Origin: Escherichia coli 042
GTDB lineage: Bacteria; Pseudomonadota; Gammaproteobacteria; Enterobacterales; Enterobacteriaceae
DNA: 64,000 nt
Assembly: GCF_000027125.1 (NCBI RefSeq)
Contig: NC_017626.1
Direction: 5' to 3' (one strand)
The notes below the pieces were generated by a model. It was given only the letters and a program-made list of their open reading frames with translations, was not told the origin of the DNA and did no database searches. Within the stretch, counting starts at the first letter, position 1. Each line of letters opens with the position of its first letter. Positions 20,921 to 54,617 of the stretch are shown in pieces. A program made the position numbers and the translations under genes.

Positions 20921-22021
20921 ATGCAAAACTGGATAAAGGCCGCAGCGATCGCTGTAAGCCTGGCGCTGCCCGGCGTGGCGCTGGCGCAATCGCTGGAGTC
21001 GCTGGTCAACGTACAGGGCGTGCGTGAAAACCAACTGGTCGGCTACAGCCTGGTGGTCGGCCTCGACGGCACGGGTGATAAAAACCAGGTCAAATTCACC
21101 AACCAGACCATCACCAATATGCTGCGCCAGTTTGGCGTGCAGCTGCCGAATAAAATCGACCCGAAGGTGAAAAACGTCGCGGCGGTGGCGGTGAGCGCCA
21201 CGCTGCCGCCGATGTACTCGCGCGGGCAGACCATTGACGTCACCGTTTCGTCGATTGGCGATGCCAAAAGTATTCGCGGCGGCACTTTATTGCTTACGCA
21301 GCTGCACGGCGCAGATGGCGAAGTGTATGCCCTGGCGCAGGGAAGTGTGGTGGTGGGCGGGATGAATGCCACCGGGGCCAGCGGTTCCAGCGTGACGGTT
21401 AACACACCGACCGCCGGGTTAATTCCCAACGGCGCGACGGTGGAGCGTGAGATCCCCAGCGATTTTCAGATGGGCGACACCATCACCCTCAACCTGAAAC
21501 GCCCGTCGTTTAAAGATGCCAACAATATTGCGGCGGCGATCAACGCTTCGTTTGGCGGCATCGCCACCGCGCAGAGTTCCACCAACGTTACCGTGCGCGC
21601 GCCCACCAGCCCCGGCGCGCGGGTGGCGTTTATGTCGCAACTGGATGATGTACAGGTGCAGGTAGAGAAAATCCGCGCCCGCGTGGTGTTTAACTCGCGC
21701 ACTGGCACGGTGGTAATGGGCGATGGCGTTGCGCTGCACGCGGCGGCGGTGTCGCACGGCAGTTTGACCGTCTCGATTAACGAAACCAGCAACGTCAGCC
21801 AGCCGAATGCCTTTGCGGGCGGGCGCACGGCGGTAACGCCGCAGAGCAATATCGCGGTGAATCACGCCCGTCCGGGGGTGGTGAGTTTGCCGGAGTCGAG
21901 CAGCCTGAAAACGTTGGTTAATGCGTTGAACAGTTTAGGCGCGACGCCGGATGACATTATGTCGATTTTGCAGGCGCTGCATGAAGCGGGCGCGCTGGAT
22001 GCCGACCTGGAGGTGATCTGA
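20921..22021 (+). CDS. lfgI: FlgI homolog (P-ring)
   Basis: Signal peptide ([23 protein letters not shown]) and FlgI-like body; start at 20921 with GGAGA ribosome-binding site preferred over track start 20906. Confidence 0.85.
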
Positions 22022-22320
22022 TGAAAGTTAACGGCAGCGGCGGGATTGATGGCAGCGACGCATTAATGGGGCCGAAGGTTCAGGCCAATGATATCAAGCA
22101 GGCTGCGGAACAGTTTGAGGCGATTTTTTTACGCAACATGTTGAAAGAGATGCGTAAAACCAACGAGTTGTTCGATTCGAAAGATAACCCGTTTAACAGC
22201 GATTCGGTGCGCATGATGCAGGGGTTTTATGACGATGAGTTGTGTAACACCCTGGCGCAGCAGCACGGGATTGGGATTGCGGCGATGATTGTGAAGCAGT
22301 TGTCGCCGAAGCATAAATGA
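22021..22320 (+). CDS. lfgJ: FlgJ homolog, rod-binding domain only, no muramidase domain
   Basis: 99-aa ORF with FlgJ N-terminal-type sequence (AAEQFEAIFLRNMLKEMRK); ends before a REP cluster with no room for a glucosaminidase domain. Confidence 0.75.
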   Translation: MKVNGSGGIDGSDALMGPKVQANDIKQAAEQFEAIFLRNMLKEMRKTNELFDSKDNPFNSDSVRMMQGFYDDELCNTLAQQHGIGIAAMIVKQLSPKHK

Positions 22321-22334
22321 GGCTCCGACGTTCG

Positions 22335-22421
22335 GTGCCTGATGCGACGCTGGCGCGTCTTATCAGGCCTACGAGTCGCCCGTATGTAGGCCGGATAAGG
22401 CGTTCACGCCGCATCCGGCAC
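22335..22421. repeat. REP/BIME cluster
   Basis: GCCTGATGCGACGCTGGCGCGTCTTATCAGGCCTAC followed by GTAGGCCGGATAAGGCGTTCACGCCGCATCCGGCA. Confidence 0.85.
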
Positions 22422-22495
22422 CCGGTTTACGGAACTTAAGAATCCCCAACCTAACGCCGCTTTTAACCGGCACGATTTACCGGTAAGGATCCAAC

Positions 22496-23872
22496 ATGGA
22501 CATGATTAACATCGGCTACAGCGGCGCATCAACCGCGCAGGTGGAGCTGAACGTCACGGCGCAAAACACCGCCAACGCCATGACCACGGGCTACACCCGT
22601 CAGGTGGCGGAGATCAGCACCATCGGTGCCAGCGGCGGTTCGCCGAACAGCGCCGGTAACGGCGTGCAGGTCGATAGCATTCGCCGCGTCTCCAACCAGT
22701 ATCAGGTGAATCAGGTGTGGTATGCCGCCAGCGATTACGGCTATTACAGCACCCAGCAAGGGTATCTCACGCAACTGGAAGCGGTACTGAGCGACGATAA
22801 CAGCAGCCTGAGCGGCGGCTTCGATAACTTTTTCGCCGCCCTTAACGAAGCGACCACCAGCCCCGATGATTCCGCCCTGCGCGAGCAGGTGATCAGCGAA
22901 GCCGGGGCGCTGTCGCTGCGTATCGACAACACGCTGGATTACATCGACTCGCAAAGCACGGAAATCATCAGCCAGCAGCAGGCGATGGTGTCGCAAATTA
23001 ATACGCTCACCAGCGGTATCGCCAGCTATAACCAGCAAATCGCTCAGGCCGAAGCCAACGGCGATAACGCCTCCGCGCTGTACGACGCCCGCGACCAGAT
23101 GGTGGAAGAACTCAGCGGGATGATGGATGTGCAGGTCAATATCGACGACCAGGGCAACTACAACGTTACCCTGAAAAACGGTCAACCGCTGGTGAGCGGG
23201 CAGCAAAGCTCGACCATCGCGCTGGAAACCAACGCCGACGGCACGCCGACCATGTCGCTGACCTTCGCCGGAACCACCTCGACGATGACCACCGACACTG
23301 GAGGTTCATTAGGCGCACTGTTTGATTATCAAAACGACGTGCTGACGCCGCTGACCGACACCATCAACAGCATGGCGTCGCAGTTTGCCGATGCGGTCAA
23401 CAATCAACTGGCGCAGGGCTACGATCTCAACGGCAACCCCGGCGAGCCGCTGTTTATTTATGACGCCAGCAACGCCGATGGCCCGCTGACCGTCAACCCG
23501 GATATCACCGCCGATGAGCTGGCGTTTTCCAGTTCACCGGACGAAAGCGGTAACAGCGACAACTTACAGGCGCTGATCAATATCTCCACCGAACCGCTGG
23601 AGATAGCCAACCTCGGCAGCGTGACGGTCGGGCAGGCGTGCTCGTCAATCATCAGCAATATCGGCATTTACAGCCAGCAAAACCAGACGGAAGTCGATGC
23701 CGCGTCCAATGTCTATTCCGCAGCGCAAAACCAGCAGAGCAGCGTCAGCGGCGTCAGCATGGACGAAGAGGCGGTTAACCTGATCACCTATCAACAAATT
23801 TATGAAGCCAATCTGAAAGTCATTTCCGCCGGGGCCGAGATTTTCGATTCGGTGCTGGAAATGTGCAGCTAA
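22496..23872 (+). CDS. lfgK: FlgK homolog (hook-associated protein 1)
   Basis: 458-aa ORF with axial-protein N-terminus and FlgK position. Confidence 0.85.
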   Translation: MDMINIGYSGASTAQVELNVTAQNTANAMTTGYTRQVAEISTIGASGGSPNSAGNGVQVDSIRRVSNQYQVNQVWYAASDYGYYSTQQGYLTQLEAVLSDDNSSLSGGFDNFFAALNEATTSPDDSALREQVISEAGALSLRIDNTLDYIDSQSTEIISQQQAMVSQINTLTSGIASYNQQIAQAEANGDNASALYDARDQMVEELSGMMDVQVNIDDQGNYNVTLKNGQPLVSGQQSSTIALETNADGTPTMSLTFAGTTSTMTTDTGGSLGALFDYQNDVLTPLTDTINSMASQFADAVNNQLAQGYDLNGNPGEPLFIYDASNADGPLTVNPDITADELAFSSSPDESGNSDNLQALINISTEPLEIANLGSVTVGQACSSIISNIGIYSQQNQTEVDAASNVYSAAQNQQSSVSGVSMDEEAVNLITYQQIYEANLKVISAGAEIFDSVLEMCS

Positions 23873-24832: not shown

Positions 24833-25810
24833 ATGCAGGTCGGACTTACATCTTCGTCACTCGCCACCGGCGGCGCGCATAGCGCTGCGGTATCGTCGTC
24901 AACCGTTGCGCCCACTCAGGCGGTGCGGCAAAAACTCCCGGCGACGGCGAGTGAATATCCGGCCTCGCCGCTGATTACCACTCGCCCGCAGCGTTACAGC
25001 GTGCAGCTTAACGACCAGCTCACCACGTTGCAGCAGGCGGATCACTATCTCGGGCAACTGGAGCAGCAGTTGCTCGATTATCGTCACAGCCAGCGCAAAG
25101 GCGGGCAGGCGCAGAGTTCGGCGCTGATGCAGATGCTGGACAAACGCACCGCGCTTTCCGGCGGTGCGGTGGACCGCCAGTTGCAGCCAGTGTTGCAGGG
25201 GGAAGCGCGGGTGACTTTTCACTCGCCGGATCTGGCGAATCTGGTACACAATCCCACGCCGGGAACGCGCATGTTCAGCGTCTCTGACGGGCGGCAGACT
25301 CAGCTTTCGGCGGTGATGCTGTCTGAGGATGACAGCGCTGGGCAGTACCAGACGCGGCTGACCAACGCCCTGCGCCGCGTGGGCGTGCAGATGCATCAAA
25401 ACGCCGATGGTATAAGTTTCTCCACCACTGAAAAACAGTGGCCCAACATTGAAAGCACCCTAAGCGTGCGCACCGATGGTGATAAATCAGCGTTTATGCC
25501 ACTAAAAACCTTTGCCGAACCGTCGCAGGCGGACCGCTTAGTGCAAAGCCTGCAACAGGGCGGAGCGGGGATTTCTCAGACGTTAGAAAGCATTAATCAG
25601 CAGCGTGTGCAGATGGCGGTACAGCAGGAAAAGGCGCGGCAGTTGATCGACGGCATGTCGCGCTTCCCGCAAACGGAAAGCGCCGTGCAGGCGTCGGAAA
25701 ATCTCGGCGGCGTGCTGGATAGCGCCAATCATAACTATCAGGTTTTATTGCAGGCGGTGAACGGTCAGGCGCGAATTTCCAGCCAGACGGTGAGGAGTTT
25801 ATTGGGTTAG
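24833..25810 (+). CDS. lafW: Lateral-flagellar protein of uncertain role
   Basis: 325-aa Gln/Ser-rich ORF after lfgL; symbol assigned by position in the Flag-2 gene order, not by motif. Confidence 0.55.
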   Translation: MQVGLTSSSLATGGAHSAAVSSSTVAPTQAVRQKLPATASEYPASPLITTRPQRYSVQLNDQLTTLQQADHYLGQLEQQLLDYRHSQRKGGQAQSSALMQMLDKRTALSGGAVDRQLQPVLQGEARVTFHSPDLANLVHNPTPGTRMFSVSDGRQTQLSAVMLSEDDSAGQYQTRLTNALRRVGVQMHQNADGISFSTTEKQWPNIESTLSVRTDGDKSAFMPLKTFAEPSQADRLVQSLQQGGAGISQTLESINQQRVQMAVQQEKARQLIDGMSRFPQTESAVQASENLGGVLDSANHNYQVLLQAVNGQARISSQTVRSLLG

Positions 25811-25882: not shown

Positions 25883-26227
25883 ATGATGTGGGACGTCGAG
25901 ACAACGGAGACTTTCGACAACTGGTTTGATGCCCAGACTGTTGCGCTGAAAGAAGATTTACTTGCTGCAATGCTGATTCTTGCTGAGTATGGCCCACAGT
26001 TGGGCAGACCCTTTGCGGATACGGTTAATGATTCACAGTTTTCAAATATGAAAGAATTACGCGTCCAACATCAGGGAAACCCGGTACGTGCTTTTTTTGC
26101 TTTCGATCCTGCGCGCCGTGGCATTGTATTATGTGCGGGTGATAAAACGGGGTTAAATGAGAAAAAGTTTTATCGCGATATGATCAAGCTCGCTGATTCT
26201 GAATACCGTAAGCATCTGAAAAAGTAA
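25883..26227 (+). CDS. HigB/RelE-superfamily toxin-like protein (Gp49-like)
   Basis: 114-aa ORF resembling the HigB/Gp49 killer family (ELRVQHQGNPVRAFFAFDPARRGIVLCAGDK), paired with a downstream HTH protein. Confidence 0.7.
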   Translation: MMWDVETTETFDNWFDAQTVALKEDLLAAMLILAEYGPQLGRPFADTVNDSQFSNMKELRVQHQGNPVRAFFAFDPARRGIVLCAGDKTGLNEKKFYRDMIKLADSEYRKHLKK

Positions 26228-26236
26228 GGAACGATA

Positions 26237-26536
26237 ATGGCTACTCTAAAAGAACTGATGGCAAAGCAAAGCCCTGAAAGCCAGGCGCGTATTGCGGCAA
26301 AAGTTGAGGAAATGCGCCAGACCATCGCCTTGCATCAGCTGAGAGAAGAACTCAATATTTCGCAAACGGAAATGGCGGCAGCGATGGGCATTAAGCAACC
26401 GACTCTTGCAAAAATGGAGCAGGCAGATAACGATCCTCGGTTGTCTACGCTAAAACGCTATGTTGCGGCTTTAGGTGGGGAATTGAGTATCGACGTTAAA
26501 CTGCCGAATGGTAAGAGAATTGCATTTCAGATTTAA
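26237..26536 (+). CDS. HigA-like HTH (XRE-family) antitoxin
   Basis: 99-aa ORF with HTH (LNISQTEMAAAMGIKQPTLAKME), 10 bp downstream of the toxin gene. Confidence 0.7.
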   Translation: MATLKELMAKQSPESQARIAAKVEEMRQTIALHQLREELNISQTEMAAAMGIKQPTLAKMEQADNDPRLSTLKRYVAALGGELSIDVKLPNGKRIAFQI

Positions 26537-48224: not shown

Positions 48225-48503
48225 TTAAATCAATAAGTTACACATAATTAGTACCTTCCTTTTTTTTGACTGGGACAAATTTGGGACCGATGGGTTCAGG
48301 ACTGAGTCTATTTGCCGTGCGTGTTCGGTAAGGTGATTAGGCGCGAGGTGAGCATATCGACGAACCATTTCGATAGACTCCCAGCCTCCCATTTCTGAAA
48401 ATGCAAGAAGAGAAACACTGGACTGAACCAGCCTGCTTGCCTTTGCTATCAAAGTACCTTGAAGGCCAGATGATTTCTGGCGATATTTACAGCGCTTCCG
48501 CAA
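48225..48503 (-). pseudogene. 3' remnant of a P4-type tyrosine integrase gene abutting thrW
   Basis: C-terminal integrase signature [32 protein letters not shown] with the catalytic-Tyr RRYAHL motif; no N-terminal or core domains upstream. Confidence 0.75.
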
Positions 48504-48585
48504 TGAGTTTTTCTCTGTGCCGCCAGAGGCGTTCCCCGCTTTTTCAGCACCGCAATAATGTCGGCGGAATGCCAGTCCTGTTGCA

Positions 48586-49056
48586 TCATGCGGCCACCTC
48601 GCTGATAAATTTTACGCCGTCGGCGGTACGCAGCCAGCGTGGGGCTTTGAGTCCTTCCGTGAAATACCAGACCAGCTCACACAGCAGCCCGGTCAGGGTT
48701 TGCTCCATTTTTGGTTCCGCCGGACGTTCCAGCAGAAGCTGGAGTAGTGCGAGGCAGTATTCGCACAAGGAATCAGGTTCGGAAATAAAGTGCTCTGGTG
48801 TGGCGGGAAGGGTATCCACGGTCAGGCTTTCGGTAAGATGCGGTGGGATGGGGTCGTGTAGTGTGGGTTGCAGTAGCGCAAGAGCCGCGTGAAGCCGCCC
48901 GCAGAGCGCCAGTCGTAGCGCTGGATCGTCGGTTTCAATCAGGGTTTCGGCAAAGCGGGCGCAGTAGTCAGCAAGGACAGTGAAATCCGTGGTGGCATTG
49001 AAGGGGACGGTCAATAGATCGAGTAAATCGCTGTCAGTGGTGAGGATTGTAGCCAT
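48586..49056 (-). CDS. Hypothetical 156-aa protein, function unknown
   Basis: Acidic Leu-rich ORF with GGAGG ribosome-binding site 8-12 nt upstream of the ATG; no motif recognised. Confidence 0.55.
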
Positions 49057-49059
49057 AGG

Positions 49060-49260
49060 GCAACCTCCGATAAGTGGGTGTTCAAGCCACCACCGGAGAG
49101 GCTAATCTCGCGGGTGGTGGAACCGGGCAGGGTTAGCCTTACCAGCCTTATCGGACACTGGCGCGTCTTGCGACGCCCCCGCCCGGCCCACCATTGAGAT
49201 GTAACCGTGCGAACAACACAAAAAAAGACGCTGGCGCGTCATGTGTCGCCGATAAGATTT
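49060..49260. repeat. Cluster of degenerate REP-like palindromic units and hairpins
   Basis: GACACTGGCGCGTCTTGCGACGCC (49155-49178) and GACGCTGGCGCGTCATGTGTCGCC (49227-49250); CCGATAAG/CTTATCGG three times; 8-bp inverted repeat CCACCACC/GGTGGTGG (49087-49094/49113-49120); minus-strand GACGC-loop-GCGTC hairpin followed by T7 (49221-49241). Confidence 0.65.
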
Positions 49261-49402
49261 CTTCAGGAGGCTAATCCCGACGCCTGATTTTGCAGGCGCG
49301 GGAGAAAGATACTGCGATTGGTCATGAGTGGCAAGGGCTACATCATGTTTACCGACATCTCACGCAAAAATACCCTGATTATTAATAGCGAAAATCAGTT
49401 TC

Positions 49403-52400
49403 TTATTTTGGCGGTAGCTTTTTGCGGTTCTTTGCCAACTGGAATCCTTCAGGTAACGGTTTGAATTTATCGCCGCCTTTAGGCCAGCGTTTTGCCCTGC
49501 TCTGAAATGCCCTTAACGAGTCGATATCCAGCGTTGCAGCGACCACAAAGTCATTATCACCGCCCTTCACACGAGCAATATCACGCATAAAGGGTTCTTT
49601 TGCCGGGGAACGTACGCGACTATCGCCGTATTTTCGGTTATTCACTAAAATAGTATAGGCATGAATATCCAGCGCTGCTGATTCAATCAACGATGCAAAC
49701 GTATCTAGATCTTTATTCCAGCTCAATACCATTAATGCATCGAGTGCGCCCTGAAAACGGATCCTCGCTTTACTATTCTGGAGTTCAGAGCAAATCATAA
49801 CGCCAAAATTGACGCCGTGATGAATATATACCGGCTTACGTTGTTTAACATTAAGTGTCGAATCCCAAGACTTACCATAAGTTGAAAATAATGCCTCATC
49901 TTCACCTACGGCGGGTTCCAGCTTGGGTTGCCATATTTTGACACTCGCTGGATAGCCGAGTCTGTTATCTGAAAGGACAAGTACGGCCTCACTCTTCAGT
50001 TGATTATCGTCTAAGTGGCGGTATTCTGTTCCCGCAATTAGACTGATACCCGCCGAACTCAAACGATCAGCAATACTGTTAACCCAGCGTAACGGGATTG
50101 AAAGCTCAGGGAATAAAACATAATCAGGTTTAGGAGATAGTTTCAATGTTGCATTAACCAGTTCAGAAATCCGCTGGTACCTTGAACGGGACAAGTTAGA
50201 TTTATTGCAGGCCATTTTAGCCCAGTCGTCCTCCTCTGTTTTAATGCTGGTTAGCGCAACGACAACTTTATGTTTCCTGTCTGTGCCAATATGAATGAAT
50301 TTCTTAGGCCGAGCTTTTTTTGTCGCTTCATCTGAGTCCTGCTCCGATGCTAGCAACGTCGGTTTGATCCATACTCCGCGTAATGCTTGAGTATATTTTG
50401 CCCAAATGGTGGACGGTCTCTCATCTGGTTTTTTGTCGGATGTGGAGGGTAATCCAACACATTCGGGGGCCAGTTCTGATATTTCAGCGGGTGTTAAAGG
50501 ACGTGTAGGGAAAATGTAAGGTAGGTAACTTTCGTTCTTACGATTTCCTTTAGCCACTTTTTCCAGTCGGGTATTCTTGGTTGATTTCAAAAATAGCTTA
50601 ATAACGTCAATATCAATAAGCGATGAGTCGCTCATTAATTTCAGTATTTTAACTTCTTTTTTACTATCACGCTGATTAACAAGTTTTTCTGCCGACTGAC
50701 TCTTTACGATCTGTTTATAAGGTTCCTTTGCTAAATCAGCTCGAGCTACCAATGGCGCTTTTAAATAAAAATCTGCTGAATCAAAGCGAAGATCCAGTAA
50801 ATCCTTTAGATTCGTCAGACTTTGTGAAATATGATTAAAAAATGTATCCGCAAGGCACTCTTCTTTCTTTGAACGTTTATCAAGAAATAATCTGTCAGGA
50901 CTGTAATATCGTGTCGCTGCATCAACAAATAGCCAGCTTAATGTGCCTTTTATACAGCGCCAAAGATCATTTACTGCTCGAGTTTTGCAACCATTTATAT
51001 TCACTTCCTTACCTGAAGTAATCACCGATGCCAACAGGTTGATGGATTCGTAAGCTTTAAGTACAATTTTTTCCGCGTGCTGCCATTCATTCATACTGAT
51101 AGCAAAGCCAAGCAGCCTTGGCAGATAACTAAAATGTGCAAATAGATTATCAGCCCTAAGAATATGGTTGTAGGCAAACTGATAAAACTCTTCCCGCTGT
51201 TCTTTCCATTCACTTGGAGGCAGATCTCGTGCCAGTGTTTCAACGTAGCGTAATTGCAGTGACCAGCCCAAACGACGAATGGTTAATCCATCCGCACGGC
51301 GCAGAGTATCGGCATTTTCACCTACACTACCGGCAGCGGAAAGGACTTTAGCTGCGGTGGAGTGTTCCAGTTGATCCGGTGAAGGCATCAAGCGGTGTTC
51401 ACTAGAAAGCTCGTAGATCTCCTTTTCGATACTGTCGAGCAGGTCTATTCCAGCCCTCCCTTGAAGCACGAAAAGTTTTTGCTTATCGGATTGTAACTGG
51501 ATGGTGGTCTTACCCTGGAAATGCTCGCCCTGCTGTATTTGCCATATTTGTTTTTGCTCGTTTTTCAAATAAACGCAATCATTGCCAAGCCTATCTTGCA
51601 GCAATAACATAAATTCGTGATTATTAGTAATTGTCCCTGTATCGCGTATTACAAGGAACATATCATCGACATAACGACCGTAGTGAATTGGTGATAGTTT
51701 TTCAATGACTAATTTATCCCAATGGTGTAGCAATATATTTGAAATGATCCGACTGGCTGTTAATCCAATGACCAGACCACCATTAATAACAGGTGTTTTG
51801 TACGCTATTTTCTTTCCAAATGCCGCTGCGCCGTCAGACCAGTGCTTTAAGAATACTGCTAACTGTGCAGTAAACGCTTTTTCATCCTCAGTCAGTTTTA
51901 TGTTTAGTGTGTTATAGAGATCATCAGAGGTTATAGCCAGTGGATCAATAAAATGATAGTAACTTTTTAAATCCAGTGAGGCGGCGATAATGTCACGATC
52001 TTTTTCCAACTCGTCACGTATAGCTTTTAAGCCATCACCACGCCATTTTTGGTAGGGCTGGAAGTAGGGGCTAAAAGAACCCACGGCACTGATATGGAAT
52101 GGATTATCCTGCTCATTGCTAAATAATTCATCATTACGAATACGCTTTAGCCGCGCGCCATAGCAACAGTTATCTAAGCTGGCATCAAATTTATGCCCGA
52201 CCATGTTAATCCATAGTGCAGAGATAATGTGACTATCAACCGGGAAGTCACCAATAATACGAAACTCTGGTATCAGATCAAAATTATTAAATAAATGGTC
52301 GGCTGCTCGTTTAGGATTAGAAAAGTGGACGTGTCCATTTTGGGATTCATGTTTTTTCTTTGTGGTTAATTTTTTCGGTAACAAACGAAATTTGCCAATC

Positions 52401-52612
52401 AACTTCTTATTGCTACTGAATCCATCTTCGCTCTGCAAAAGATCTAAGAGTTTTTGCAGGTTTTCAAGTAATTCCTGCTCATACTCGGCAAATTTGATAG
52501 CAACAGGAAATGTATTCTCAAAGAAGCTATCGGCTTTTGCTTTCCGGTAAGCGACCAGAAGGTCTTCAATCGTCAGATCATCCCAGCCAGTGAAAATTGC
52601 CTGATATGTCAT
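49403..52612 (-). CDS. Reverse transcriptase fused to a C-terminal nitrilase-family domain (DRT type 1-like)
   Basis: 1069-aa ORF; RT motif A-like LDLKSYYHFI, motif C YGRYVDDMFLV; C-terminal nitrilase-like Glu in YVLFPELSIP and Cys in GVMICSE. Confidence 0.8.
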   Translation of the reverse strand: MTYQAIFTGWDDLTIEDLLVAYRKAKADSFFENTFPVAIKFAEYEQELLENLQKLLDLLQSEDGFSSNKKLIGKFRLLPKKLTTKKKHESQNGHVHFSNPKRAADHLFNNFDLIPEFRIIGDFPVDSHIISALWINMVGHKFDASLDNCCYGARLKRIRNDELFSNEQDNPFHISAVGSFSPYFQPYQKWRGDGLKAIRDELEKDRDIIAASLDLKSYYHFIDPLAITSDDLYNTLNIKLTEDEKAFTAQLAVFLKHWSDGAAAFGKKIAYKTPVINGGLVIGLTASRIISNILLHHWDKLVIEKLSPIHYGRYVDDMFLVIRDTGTITNNHEFMLLLQDRLGNDCVYLKNEQKQIWQIQQGEHFQGKTTIQLQSDKQKLFVLQGRAGIDLLDSIEKEIYELSSEHRLMPSPDQLEHSTAAKVLSAAGSVGENADTLRRADGLTIRRLGWSLQLRYVETLARDLPPSEWKEQREEFYQFAYNHILRADNLFAHFSYLPRLLGFAISMNEWQHAEKIVLKAYESINLLASVITSGKEVNINGCKTRAVNDLWRCIKGTLSWLFVDAATRYYSPDRLFLDKRSKKEECLADTFFNHISQSLTNLKDLLDLRFDSADFYLKAPLVARADLAKEPYKQIVKSQSAEKLVNQRDSKKEVKILKLMSDSSLIDIDVIKLFLKSTKNTRLEKVAKGNRKNESYLPYIFPTRPLTPAEISELAPECVGLPSTSDKKPDERPSTIWAKYTQALRGVWIKPTLLASEQDSDEATKKARPKKFIHIGTDRKHKVVVALTSIKTEEDDWAKMACNKSNLSRSRYQRISELVNATLKLSPKPDYVLFPELSIPLRWVNSIADRLSSAGISLIAGTEYRHLDDNQLKSEAVLVLSDNRLGYPASVKIWQPKLEPAVGEDEALFSTYGKSWDSTLNVKQRKPVYIHHGVNFGVMICSELQNSKARIRFQGALDALMVLSWNKDLDTFASLIESAALDIHAYTILVNNRKYGDSRVRSPAKEPFMRDIARVKGGDNDFVVAATLDIDSLRAFQSRAKRWPKGGDKFKPLPEGFQLAKNRKKLPPK

Positions 52613-52906
52613 GCGTTATCGTCCTTAGATTACAGTCTGTACAGAATTAGCCAGCCGTTTCATGCCCGAAGGGGGGCTCTTGACACCAGTAATCCATCAG
52701 TGAGGCTGGCAATAATTTTGATTTGTATCCATGTTACACGCTCCCCGCAACCAGTCCGAGCATATATTTGTCACATTTTTCCCGAAAGTGATTAAGTTTG
52801 AATTTTTTGTTTAATGTCGATTTTTAGTCGACAAAATGAGGAATAAGTAAACTATTTCTTGCTGTGGCGTATCCCTGAATCTACACTGGTTTAAATATTT
52901 GTACTA

Positions 52907-53710
52907 ATGTCTATTCAGAGGCGACAGTTGCCAAACTATCTAAACTGGCTGATGCAGCACACGCTACCCGGCCAGGTGCTGCTCCAGTCATGGCTTACCC
53001 GCAACGGCATAGATCGTAAGCTCTCTTATCTCTATGTGAAGAATGGCTGGCTCAGGCGGATCGCTCACGGCGTATACTGCCGGACGGGCCGTGAGCCGGA
53101 TTGGGTAGACGCGGTTTACTGCCTTCAAACACAGTGGGAAAAGCCTGTTCGGGTGGCGGGGCTAACCAGCCTTGCGCTTCAGGGCCATGCGCACTATACC
53201 GAACCGGGTAAGCCGCAGGTCTGGCTCGCGCTTCCGGCTTACGTTAAGCTGCCGGGATGGTTTGCTGCCTTCGAACAATCTGCAACATTTATCACGCTGT
53301 ATACATCGGGGCTTACCGTAGATGTAACGTCATTGACTACGGAACTGAAAATTGGCGACCGCCAGTTAGCAGGCAGTGCCCCGGAACTGGCCGCGTATGA
53401 GATCGCCTGCGGCGTTCCTTCGTTGATATCGTTCGAACATGCCGATGCTCTGTTTCAGGGGATGAATCTTCTCAGCCCGCGTAAATTGCAGGCGTTACTC
53501 TGCGCCAGTCATTCGGTTAAAACCAACCGGGTGATGCTTTACCTTGCCCGGCGTAATGGACACCCTTATTTTCAGTATCTTGATCAAAGCGGTATAGAAA
53601 CAGGTACGGGAAAGCGGCAAATCATACCTGGTGGCTGGCTGGAGCCGGATTATCAAATTACTGTTCCACGCGAATTTAAACCGGAAGGAGTCGAAGATGG
53701 ATCTGCGTGA
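52907..53710 (+). CDS. AbiEi-like antitoxin/transcriptional regulator
   Basis: 267-aa ORF immediately upstream of, and overlapping by 14 bp, a DUF1814-type nucleotidyltransferase gene; assigned mainly by that pairing. Confidence 0.6.
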   Translation: MSIQRRQLPNYLNWLMQHTLPGQVLLQSWLTRNGIDRKLSYLYVKNGWLRRIAHGVYCRTGREPDWVDAVYCLQTQWEKPVRVAGLTSLALQGHAHYTEPGKPQVWLALPAYVKLPGWFAAFEQSATFITLYTSGLTVDVTSLTTELKIGDRQLAGSAPELAAYEIACGVPSLISFEHADALFQGMNLLSPRKLQALLCASHSVKTNRVMLYLARRNGHPYFQYLDQSGIETGTGKRQIIPGGWLEPDYQITVPREFKPEGVEDGSA

Positions 53711-54617
53711 TAGCTATACCCGGCAGGTCAAACTGTTGATGGACGCTCTGCCGCATGTGGCGAAGGAGTCCGGTTTCGCATTAAAAGGCGGCACCGCAAT
53801 CAATTTGTTTGTGCAGGATTTTCCCCGTCTGTCGGTGGATATCGATCTGGCGTATAAGACTTTTGCGGATCGCGATACCGATTTGACGGCGATCAACGAC
53901 GCTTTGAAGAGAATTACTGCATCGCTGAACAGTAAACCGGGGATTACCGCGATTCGGCAGGAAAATAAAACGGATGAAAAGCGCATCATTGTGAATACGG
54001 CTGATGCCCAGATTAAGATCGAGGTTAGTCCGGTCTGGCGTGGGCTATTGTTGCCTCCGGCAGAAATGTCGGTGTGCGAACGTGTGGAAATGGAGTATGG
54101 CTTCACCACTATGAGTGTCGTTTCGCTGGCGGATCTTTATGGCGGTAAAATCTGCGCAGCGCTTGATCGTCAGCACCCGCGCGATCTGTTTGATGTGCTG
54201 AATATGCTGGAGAAACCGGGACTGATGCGGGAGATCTTTGACGGTTTTCTTTGTTATCTGGCAGGCCATCCCCGCCCCATTGCCGAGTTGCTGGCTCCAA
54301 ACTGGGATACAGAGCGGATCACGACGCTGTATGCTCAGGAATTTTCGGGGATGACTCAGCAGGAAACGTCGCTGGAATCGCTGCTGTCAGTAACGACTTT
54401 GCTGCCGCAGGCGTTGAAGTCACATCTTACGGATCTGGATCGCGAGTTCTTGCTCAGTTTTAAGCAAAACAGCCCTGACTGGTCGCGGTATCGCTATCCT
54501 GAAATTCAGCATCTTCCGGCTATTCGCTGGAAGCAACGTAATCTGGCGGTGCTGAAAGATAAAAATCCGGCGAAGTATGTGGCGGCGGTGAATAAGCTAG
54601 AGAGGGTGCTGGCGTAA
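53697..54617 (+). CDS. AbiEii-like nucleotidyltransferase toxin (DUF1814)
   Basis: 306 aa from ATG 53697 (MDLRDSYTRQ); nucleotidyltransferase signature FALKGGTAINLF...RLSVDIDLAY. Confidence 0.75.
   Translation: MDLRDSYTRQVKLLMDALPHVAKESGFALKGGTAINLFVQDFPRLSVDIDLAYKTFADRDTDLTAINDALKRITASLNSKPGITAIRQENKTDEKRIIVNTADAQIKIEVSPVWRGLLLPPAEMSVCERVEMEYGFTTMSVVSLADLYGGKICAALDRQHPRDLFDVLNMLEKPGLMREIFDGFLCYLAGHPRPIAELLAPNWDTERITTLYAQEFSGMTQQETSLESLLSVTTLLPQALKSHLTDLDREFLLSFKQNSPDWSRYRYPEIQHLPAIRWKQRNLAVLKDKNPAKYVAAVNKLERVLA

Follow-up and report, generated by a model that had tools for sequence, protein, structure and literature searches.

How does a flagellar rod pass through the peptidoglycan layer if the locus that encodes it supplies a rod cap and no enzyme that cuts the cell wall? 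The question is raised by lfgJ, a known gene for the rod cap in the Flag-2 locus of Escherichia coli, a secondary flagellar locus of the lateral type that lies in the 64-kb stretch of DNA analysed here (64,000 nucleotides, referred to as the window; Table 1). Little significance attaches to this window as such: the gene and its locus were reportedly described in 2005, by Ren et al. for E. coli 042, and "rod-binding protein" is the routine annotation of the product. This annotation is correct, and single-domain FlgJ proteins form an established class. Which lytic enzyme serves the lateral-type rods of Enterobacteriaceae and Vibrio is, moreover, a question older than the observation on lfgJ.

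Flag-2 loci are defined by the gene order lfiRQPNM-lafK-lfiEFGHIJ / lfgNMABCDEFGHIJKL / lafWZABCDEFSTU before dinB, with lafK, lafW, and lafZ as markers (PMC6993521). The window encodes all 39 gene products of this definition; 38 match at full length and their genes are intact, and LfgC matches only from residue 16 on. According to a scan of the window and the RefSeq annotation of strain 118UI (NZ_CP032515.1), lfiRQPNM, lafK, lfiEFGHIJ, a variable region, and lfgNMA/BCDEFGHIJKL are followed by lafW, lafZ, and lafA-U, and then by dinB. Window positions 17113-47617 are colinear with 118UI at identical coordinates (98.8% identity), and positions 126-17105 are 96.9% identical to the same strain.

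The exception to full length, lfgC, encodes a proximal rod protein. Its frame, which opens at the ATG at 15970, ends at a stop codon at 16033-16035, and the remainder is readable in another frame (16017-16400). LfgC residues 16-143 can thus be read only out of the start frame, and the lesion is an insertion of 2 bp that lies in the GC run GCGCGC, a short way past the ATG. This stretch of lfgC is present in 1101 E. coli genomes, of which the best matches reach 97.5% (78 of 80 nt), and those genomes are therefore without the insertion. LfgJ of E. coli 042 is encoded by the same gene as the one in the window, at the same place in lfgNMABCDEFGHIJKL and together with a disrupted lfgC, which in strain 042 is a published lesion (PMC6993521; PMC4637896). 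Because of the frameshift, the Flag-2 copy in the window is probably inactive and probably builds no rod that would have to cross the wall; lfgJ is an intact gene within a probably inactive system. In the ST131 strain EC958, whose lfgC is intact, LafA was undetected and there was no Flag-2 motility (PMC4637896). Given the lfgC frameshift and the negative result in EC958, the question of rod passage is partly moot in E. coli.

Table 1. Features of the Flag-2 locus discussed in the text (window coordinates)
Feature	Position	Strand	Basis or remark
lfgC, proximal rod gene; 2 bp inserted near 16013-16020 disrupt it	15970..16400	+	
lfgI, P-ring protein gene, directly upstream of lfgJ	20921..22021	+	Pfam FlgI E 7e-134, RefSeq annotation
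lfgI-lfgJ translational coupling	22009..22023	+	GGAGG 22009-22013; lfgI TGA 22019-22021 overlaps ATG 22021-22023 as TGATG
lfgJ, 99-aa single-domain FlgJ homologue, rod-binding (rod-cap) domain only	22021..22320	+	ORF, ATG start, Pfam PF10135
REP element 1, GCCTGATGCGACGC-TGGC-GCGTCTTATCAGGCCTAC	22337..22372	+	internal palindrome I2
REP element 2, in the opposite orientation to REP 1, with which it forms a BIME-like pair	22386..22421	-	palindromes I1 and I3
Sigma-28-type promoter-like motif for lfgK, TAAG-N15-GCCGCTTT	22437..22463	+	gap alignment
lfgK, hook-associated protein 1, next gene 3′ of lfgJ	22496..23872	+	Pfam FlgK_D1 E 1e-64
LafW, Flag-2-specific conserved protein without a domain match	24833-25810		

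lfgJ is the final gene of the lfgB-J block. It sits between lfgI and lfgK in the flgI-flgJ-flgK order typical of a rod/hook operon, as part of the series lfgH-I-J-K-L inside the complete Flag-2 locus. The GGAGG lies seven bases 5′ of its ATG, and the stop codon of lfgI and the start codon of lfgJ share one base. The only Pfam match in the product is the Rod-binding family PF10135 (residues 42-93, E 3e-14). The score of 53.7 bits (cut-off 25.1), with model positions 1-51 of 51 covered, makes LfgJ a member of that family, and no Pfam match to the C-terminal GH73 glucosaminidase domain (PF01832) was obtained in the lfgJ product. The earlier note on this DNA, which described a 99-amino-acid FlgJ homologue that has only the rod-binding domain and ends ahead of a REP cluster, is thereby borne out in its first part; its second part agrees with the REP pair in the lfgJ-lfgK gap. 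The NCBIfam model of the dual-domain protein, TIGR02541, gives 68.1 bits, below its equivalog cut-off of 193, and its alignment is restricted to the N-terminal model positions 20-91 of 294. The NCBIfam models that match best are short, with 97 and 129 positions. The RefSeq entry WP_000867281.1 ("rod-binding protein") is the lfgJ product at 100% amino acid identity, and all of 30 lfgJ records among the matches listed carry this name.

Comparison of orthologues places the variable part of LfgJ in its N-terminal 24 residues. The N terminus is also disordered in an otherwise all-helical AlphaFold model of low confidence (pLDDT 53); no PDB chain matches the LfgJ domain by sequence. Such a variable, predicted-disordered N-terminal segment would be consistent with export via the flagellar type III apparatus. 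A hydrophobic N terminus is missing (Kyte-Doolittle maximum 0.24 in an 11-residue window over the first 30 residues), and LfgJ therefore has no Sec signal.

Could the missing domain be encoded in another frame close by? The C-terminal 163 residues of K-12 FlgJ (residues 151-313) were compared by tblastn with all six frames of the 64-kb window, and no glucosaminidase domain was found; the best match (E 0.04, 31 amino acids) lies within lfgH. As a positive control, the same query detects the C-domain at E 1e-30 to 1e-36 in the dual-domain loci of Colwellia and Glaciecola, and the test therefore works at about 40% identity. In addition, the 175 bp between the lfgJ stop codon and the lfgK ATG are too short for a domain of ~150 amino acids. 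Hence, the search for a muramidase domain downstream in another frame, which would have pointed to a frameshifted dual-domain gene, was negative, and lfgJ is a true single-domain gene.

When 5.8 billion proteins were searched by word index, 104 clusters of LfgJ homologues were obtained, all of them short (99-106 amino acids where full length), from Escherichia, Citrobacter, Leclercia, Scandinavium, Dryocola, Pseudescherichia, and other genera. Of 5426 complete E. coli genomes, 1273 carry lfgJ, each as a single copy. Scanning a single genome for each species provided 25 related Enterobacterales loci. In each of these, the orthologue is 99-105 amino acids long and FlgI abuts it upstream, and tblastn found a FlgJ C-domain within 6 kb of the orthologue in none of the 25. 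In loci from other genera than Escherichia, FlgK starts 66-100 bp 3′ of the gene; in E. whittamii this distance is 85 bp. The dN/dS of the window gene relative to its orthologues is about 0.05-0.25, and 25 alignment columns are invariant among LfgJ sequences as low as 49% in identity. These comparisons indicate that lfgJ is under strong purifying selection, and that the single-domain form, common to all 25 Flag-2 loci, is by this evidence ancestral and no truncation. The missing cell-wall-cutting half of FlgJ is ordinary for Flag-2-type flagellar systems.

The Flag-1 FlgJ of K-12 offers a comparison. Its N-terminal part is homologous to LfgJ (34% identity over 77 amino acids, residues 30-102, E 1e-13), its gene likewise follows flgI, and flgI and flgJ show the same one-base TGATG overlap as lfgI and lfgJ. 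With 313 amino acids against 99, however, it carries the C-terminal 160-200 residues, including the glucosaminidase, that are missing from LfgJ. The other rod, ring, and hook proteins of Flag-2 are within about 10% of the length of their Flag-1 paralogues, with the exception of FlgB and FlgK.

In beta- and gamma-proteobacteria, FlgJ typically has both domains, and elsewhere a single-domain FlgJ is combined with a separate lytic transglycosylase (PMC8517470). The single-domain class was catalogued in alpha-, delta-, and epsilon-proteobacteria by Nambu et al. 2006, in so far as that work is cited in PMC6913195. In Rhodobacter sphaeroides, the lytic transglycosylase SltF binds the single-domain FlgJ (PMC7277832), and BB0259 is the lytic partner of the single-domain FlgJ in Borrelia (PMC8517470). 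Like LfgJ, both of these FlgJ proteins have the rod-binding domain and lack the hydrolase domain, and since LfgJ lacks it, the lytic function must come in trans. In contrast to the SltF and BB0259 systems, the host of LfgJ is a gamma-proteobacterium, where the dual-domain form is the rule, and its flagellar cluster has no lytic gene within it or beside it. Lateral systems of the same type and gene order as Flag-2 are found in Plesiomonas shigelloides and Vibrio alginolyticus. The Plesiomonas cluster has been shown experimentally to drive swarming (PMC4481668), and its FlgJ_L has 328 amino acids, a glucosaminidase domain, and a rod-binding part 36% identical to LfgJ. At least one lateral-type system thus has its hydrolase built in, and both solutions exist. 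In V. alginolyticus, the lateral flgJ2 is short, as is lfgJ, with 182 amino acids compared to 307 for the polar gene (PMC10956519).

If the enzyme acts in trans, its gene might be expected within the Flag-2 cluster. The RefSeq annotation lists no peptidoglycan-lytic gene between FlhA and LafU, and Pfam and NCBIfam scans of the Flag-2 ORFs without an obvious flagellar role gave no lytic enzyme. The matches obtained were limited to a cytidylyltransferase, a family-2 glycosyltransferase, a weak FliB-like lysine methylase, a RelE/ParE-type toxin (Pfam Gp49) whose gene forms a toxin-antitoxin pair with the HTH gene beside it, the winged-helix regulator LafZ, FliL, and MotB. A Sec-exported SLT-domain gene, as present in the SltF-type system, is absent from FlhA to LafU by annotation, Pfam, and NCBIfam, and elsewhere in the 64-kb window neither annotation nor domain scans revealed an SLT, glucosaminidase, or lysozyme-like gene. 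The domain search for lytic genes at the locus that the earlier note had asked for thus returned none, and its proposal of a separately encoded lytic activity is supported to the extent that the Flag-2 locus encodes none. Whatever lytic activity there is must hence come from a gene at another place.

Two further sets of genes were considered in this context. LafW, the sole conserved protein of the Flag-2 locus without an assigned function, was modelled with AlphaFold from a 22-sequence alignment (pLDDT 74) and compared with the PDB by Foldseek. The model matches flagellins and hook-associated proteins (best E 1e-6) at a TM-score of about 0.3, which is low. LafW was rejected as the missing lytic enzyme on the grounds of this flagellin-like fold, as Foldseek gave no lysozyme or transglycosylase fold for it. 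In strain 118UI, rayT, yafL (a C40 peptidase), and dpaA lie upstream of lfhA, just beyond the limits of the window. We take these to be core genes of the K-12 map that are present also in strains without Flag-2, and for this reason they were not counted as parts of Flag-2.

On the model of the N-domain of Salmonella FlgJ and of other single-domain FlgJ proteins, LfgJ would be exported by the Flag-2 type III apparatus and would sit on the growing rod tip, where it may promote polymerization of LfgB, C, F, and G. With lower confidence, we infer that the enzyme which opens the peptidoglycan has its gene outside the Flag-2 locus. The likeliest source would be one or more housekeeping lytic transglycosylases that are present at, or recruited to, the nascent rod, in preference to an obligatory loan of Flag-1 FlgJ. 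We therefore prefer, and consider fairly probable, the reading that lfgJ is the rod cap (scaffold) gene of Flag-2 and that housekeeping lytic transglycosylases, rather than a Flag-1 protein, open the wall at the rod tip.

One alternative, raised as a possibility in the earlier note, is that the muramidase is borrowed from the primary system; Flag-1 FlgJ, or its C-terminal glucosaminidase domain after release, would then open the wall for Flag-2 rods. A dual-domain flgJ of Flag-1 is present in 5424 of the 5426 complete E. coli genomes, hence in essentially every carrier of lfgJ, and borrowing is therefore possible in this species. A partial cross-complementation has also been reported between the polar and lateral systems of Shewanella for the L-ring protein (PMC5178100). 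However, Tatumella ptyseos, Budvicia aquatica, and Pragia fontium are reported to be without Flag-1 and to carry Flag-2, and have been described as motile (De Maayer et al., PMC6993521), a statement that for T. ptyseos rests on a taxonomic manual cited in that paper. The FlgJ of T. ptyseos has 124 amino acids with Rod-binding as its sole domain, its stop codon abuts FlgK, and no lytic gene is found in the complete cluster from FlhA to MotB. As this species is reported to be motile with Flag-2 alone and has the same single-domain gene, Flag-1 FlgJ is no general requirement. Several properties of the two systems argue in the same direction. Identity is just 39-48% between their rod paralogues and 34% between the two J proteins, and their regulators differ, LafK, a sigma-54 activator, being encoded in the Flag-2 locus. 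In Salmonella, FlgJ caps the tip of the rod to which it is tethered and reaches it through the export apparatus of that same system, which speaks against a loan to the rod of another system. Collectively, we regard borrowing as unlikely. Motile species with Flag-2 alone, such as T. ptyseos, would be a clean place to seek the lytic enzyme of lateral-type rods.

A related possibility, to which we give a similarly low probability, is that Flag-2 is hydrolase-free and that the 11-kDa LfgJ recruits a shared enzyme, either the Flag-1 FlgJ glucosaminidase or a specific housekeeping lytic transglycosylase. If so, the assembly of one flagellar system would depend on a component outside it.

The enzyme might also be a dedicated one, a lytic transglycosylase of the SltF kind with its gene at another chromosomal site, co-regulated with Flag-2, and recruited by LfgJ. 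This would follow the arrangement of SltF in R. sphaeroides (PMC7277832) and BB0259 in Borrelia (PMC8517470). In those bacteria, however, the lytic gene is part of the flagellar cluster or close to it, whereas annotation and domain scans show none in the Flag-2 locus or the rest of the window, and the complete T. ptyseos cluster is likewise without one. We consider a dedicated enzyme slightly less likely again than borrowing.

Less probable still is that no specific lytic step is needed and that the rods use gaps left by normal wall growth, at lower efficiency. Plesiomonas excepted, no lytic gene is present in the Flag-2 clusters examined, which speaks for it. Hirano et al. reportedly observed in 2001 that Salmonella FlgJ without its C-terminal domain supports weak motility after long incubation, and we count this in its favour. 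Against it, the rod is too wide for the peptidoglycan mesh of about 2 nm (PMC8517470), and the single-domain systems studied so far all use a lytic enzyme (PMC8517470, PMC7277832).

There remains the stretch between lfgJ and lfgK, where the two inverted REP palindromes are located. We take the REP consensus to be a ~35-nt imperfect palindrome of the type GCC(G/T)GATGCG...CTTATC(A/C)GGCCTAC, which is extragenic and occurs in many copies; both elements of the gap fit it. Consistent with repetitive sequence, a query that included the gap matched 5425 of the 5426 E. coli genomes, at a median of at least 39 places per genome. Alignment of the gaps from eight genera shows an invariant TTAAGAA and, fifteen bases later, a conserved GCCG just 5′ of lfgK. 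This putative lfgK motif resembles the sigma-28 consensus, TAAA-N15-GCCGATAA. Consensus scans of positions 21900-22600 found neither a sigma-70 promoter nor an intrinsic terminator.

The gap also bears on the weakest alternative, that lfgJ is what remained of a dual-domain gene after a frameshift removed its 3′ half or the REP insertion took the place of that half: the dual-domain FlgJ of most beta- and gamma-proteobacteria (PMC8517470), the two domains of the Plesiomonas lateral protein, and the REP elements directly 3′ of lfgJ speak for it, but the length of 99-105 amino acids in the 25 related loci, the short REP-free gap in 20 of these, the absence of any glucosaminidase trace from every frame, the strong purifying selection on lfgJ, and the conserved promoter-like motif that follows its stop codon make it highly improbable. 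A recent loss of the muramidase half is refuted, and domain loss, if it ever occurred, predates the divergence of these Enterobacterales genera.

The REP elements themselves, counted by regular expression at the related loci, are missing from the gap in 20 of 25 and present only in some Escherichia-like ones. The pair in the window is hence, by this distribution, a recent and variable insertion of the Escherichia lineage between the lfgJ stop codon and the promoter-like motif of lfgK. Within Escherichia, the number of REP elements at this site is zero in E. whittamii, two at two loci, and eight at one locus, where the gap measures 794 bp.

The motif TAAG-N15-GCCGCTTT that precedes lfgK is kept in eight genera, with TTAAGAA invariant, and its sequence resembles a sigma-28 (LafS) promoter, here placed to serve lfgK. 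If so, the lfgB-J transcription unit would end with lfgJ, the single-domain rod-binding gene, and lfgKL would have a separate late promoter, as in the primary flagellar system, Flag-1. In the lfgJ-lfgK gap, the Escherichia-like genomes (the window and the related loci L007, L009, L010 and L011) carry 0, 2 or 8 REP elements, and the length of the gap ranges from 85 to 794 bp. In the colinear E. coli strain 118UI, rayT, a REP-associated transposase gene, lies a short way upstream of Flag-2, at a position outside the window.

Features of the window, with coordinates in nucleotides
Feature	Position	Strand	Remark
Variable region, lfiJ to lfgN	9758-13924		
lfgC, Flag-2 proximal rod gene	15970-16400	+	2-bp insertion in GCGCGC run
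REP elements	22337-22421		lfgJ-lfgK gap
TAAG-N15-GCCGCTTT motif	22437-22463	+	just upstream of lfgK, conserved
lafW	24833-25810	+	Flag-2-specific protein
RelE/ParE-type toxin gene (Pfam Gp49) and HTH (Xre-type) gene	25883-26536	+	annotation
6.4-kb insertion	48241-54607		adjoins tRNA-Thr

The extra 2 bp in the lfgC run, at about 16013-20, lead to a stop at 16033-35, and they are missing from the best matches in a set of 1101 E. coli genomes that contain the same stretch. Because this lesion agrees with the one reported for strain 042, the Flag-2 copy in the window is, judged from its sequence, probably inactive.

LafW has no match in Pfam or NCBIfam. Its 50 N-terminal residues are disordered, and the predicted fold combines long terminal helices and a beta insert. 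A Foldseek search with this model matched flagellins and hook-associated proteins (E 1e-6, low TM), and LafW is probably an additional axial or junction protein. The toxin and HTH genes are placed between lafW and lafZ, a site described as the "variable region 2" cargo site of Flag-2 (PMC6993521). The region from lfiJ to lfgN encodes a cytidylyltransferase, a family-2 glycosyltransferase of 847 aa whose C-terminal part weakly resembles a glycerophosphotransferase, and a weak match to a FliB-like lysine methylase. Relative to strain 118UI, it is this region that diverges most (92-94% protein identity), and its genes probably encode flagellin-modifying machinery.

Among 5426 E. coli genomes, 258 carry the whole insertion at tRNA-Thr, whereas strain 118UI lacks it. 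Its annotation in the carrier genomes (an integrase, an RNA-directed DNA polymerase and an AbiEi/AbiEii toxin-antitoxin pair) gives it the appearance of a small defence islet. ISEc31 splits paoA in strain 118UI at the point corresponding to about 63319, where the window is continuous and free of the element.
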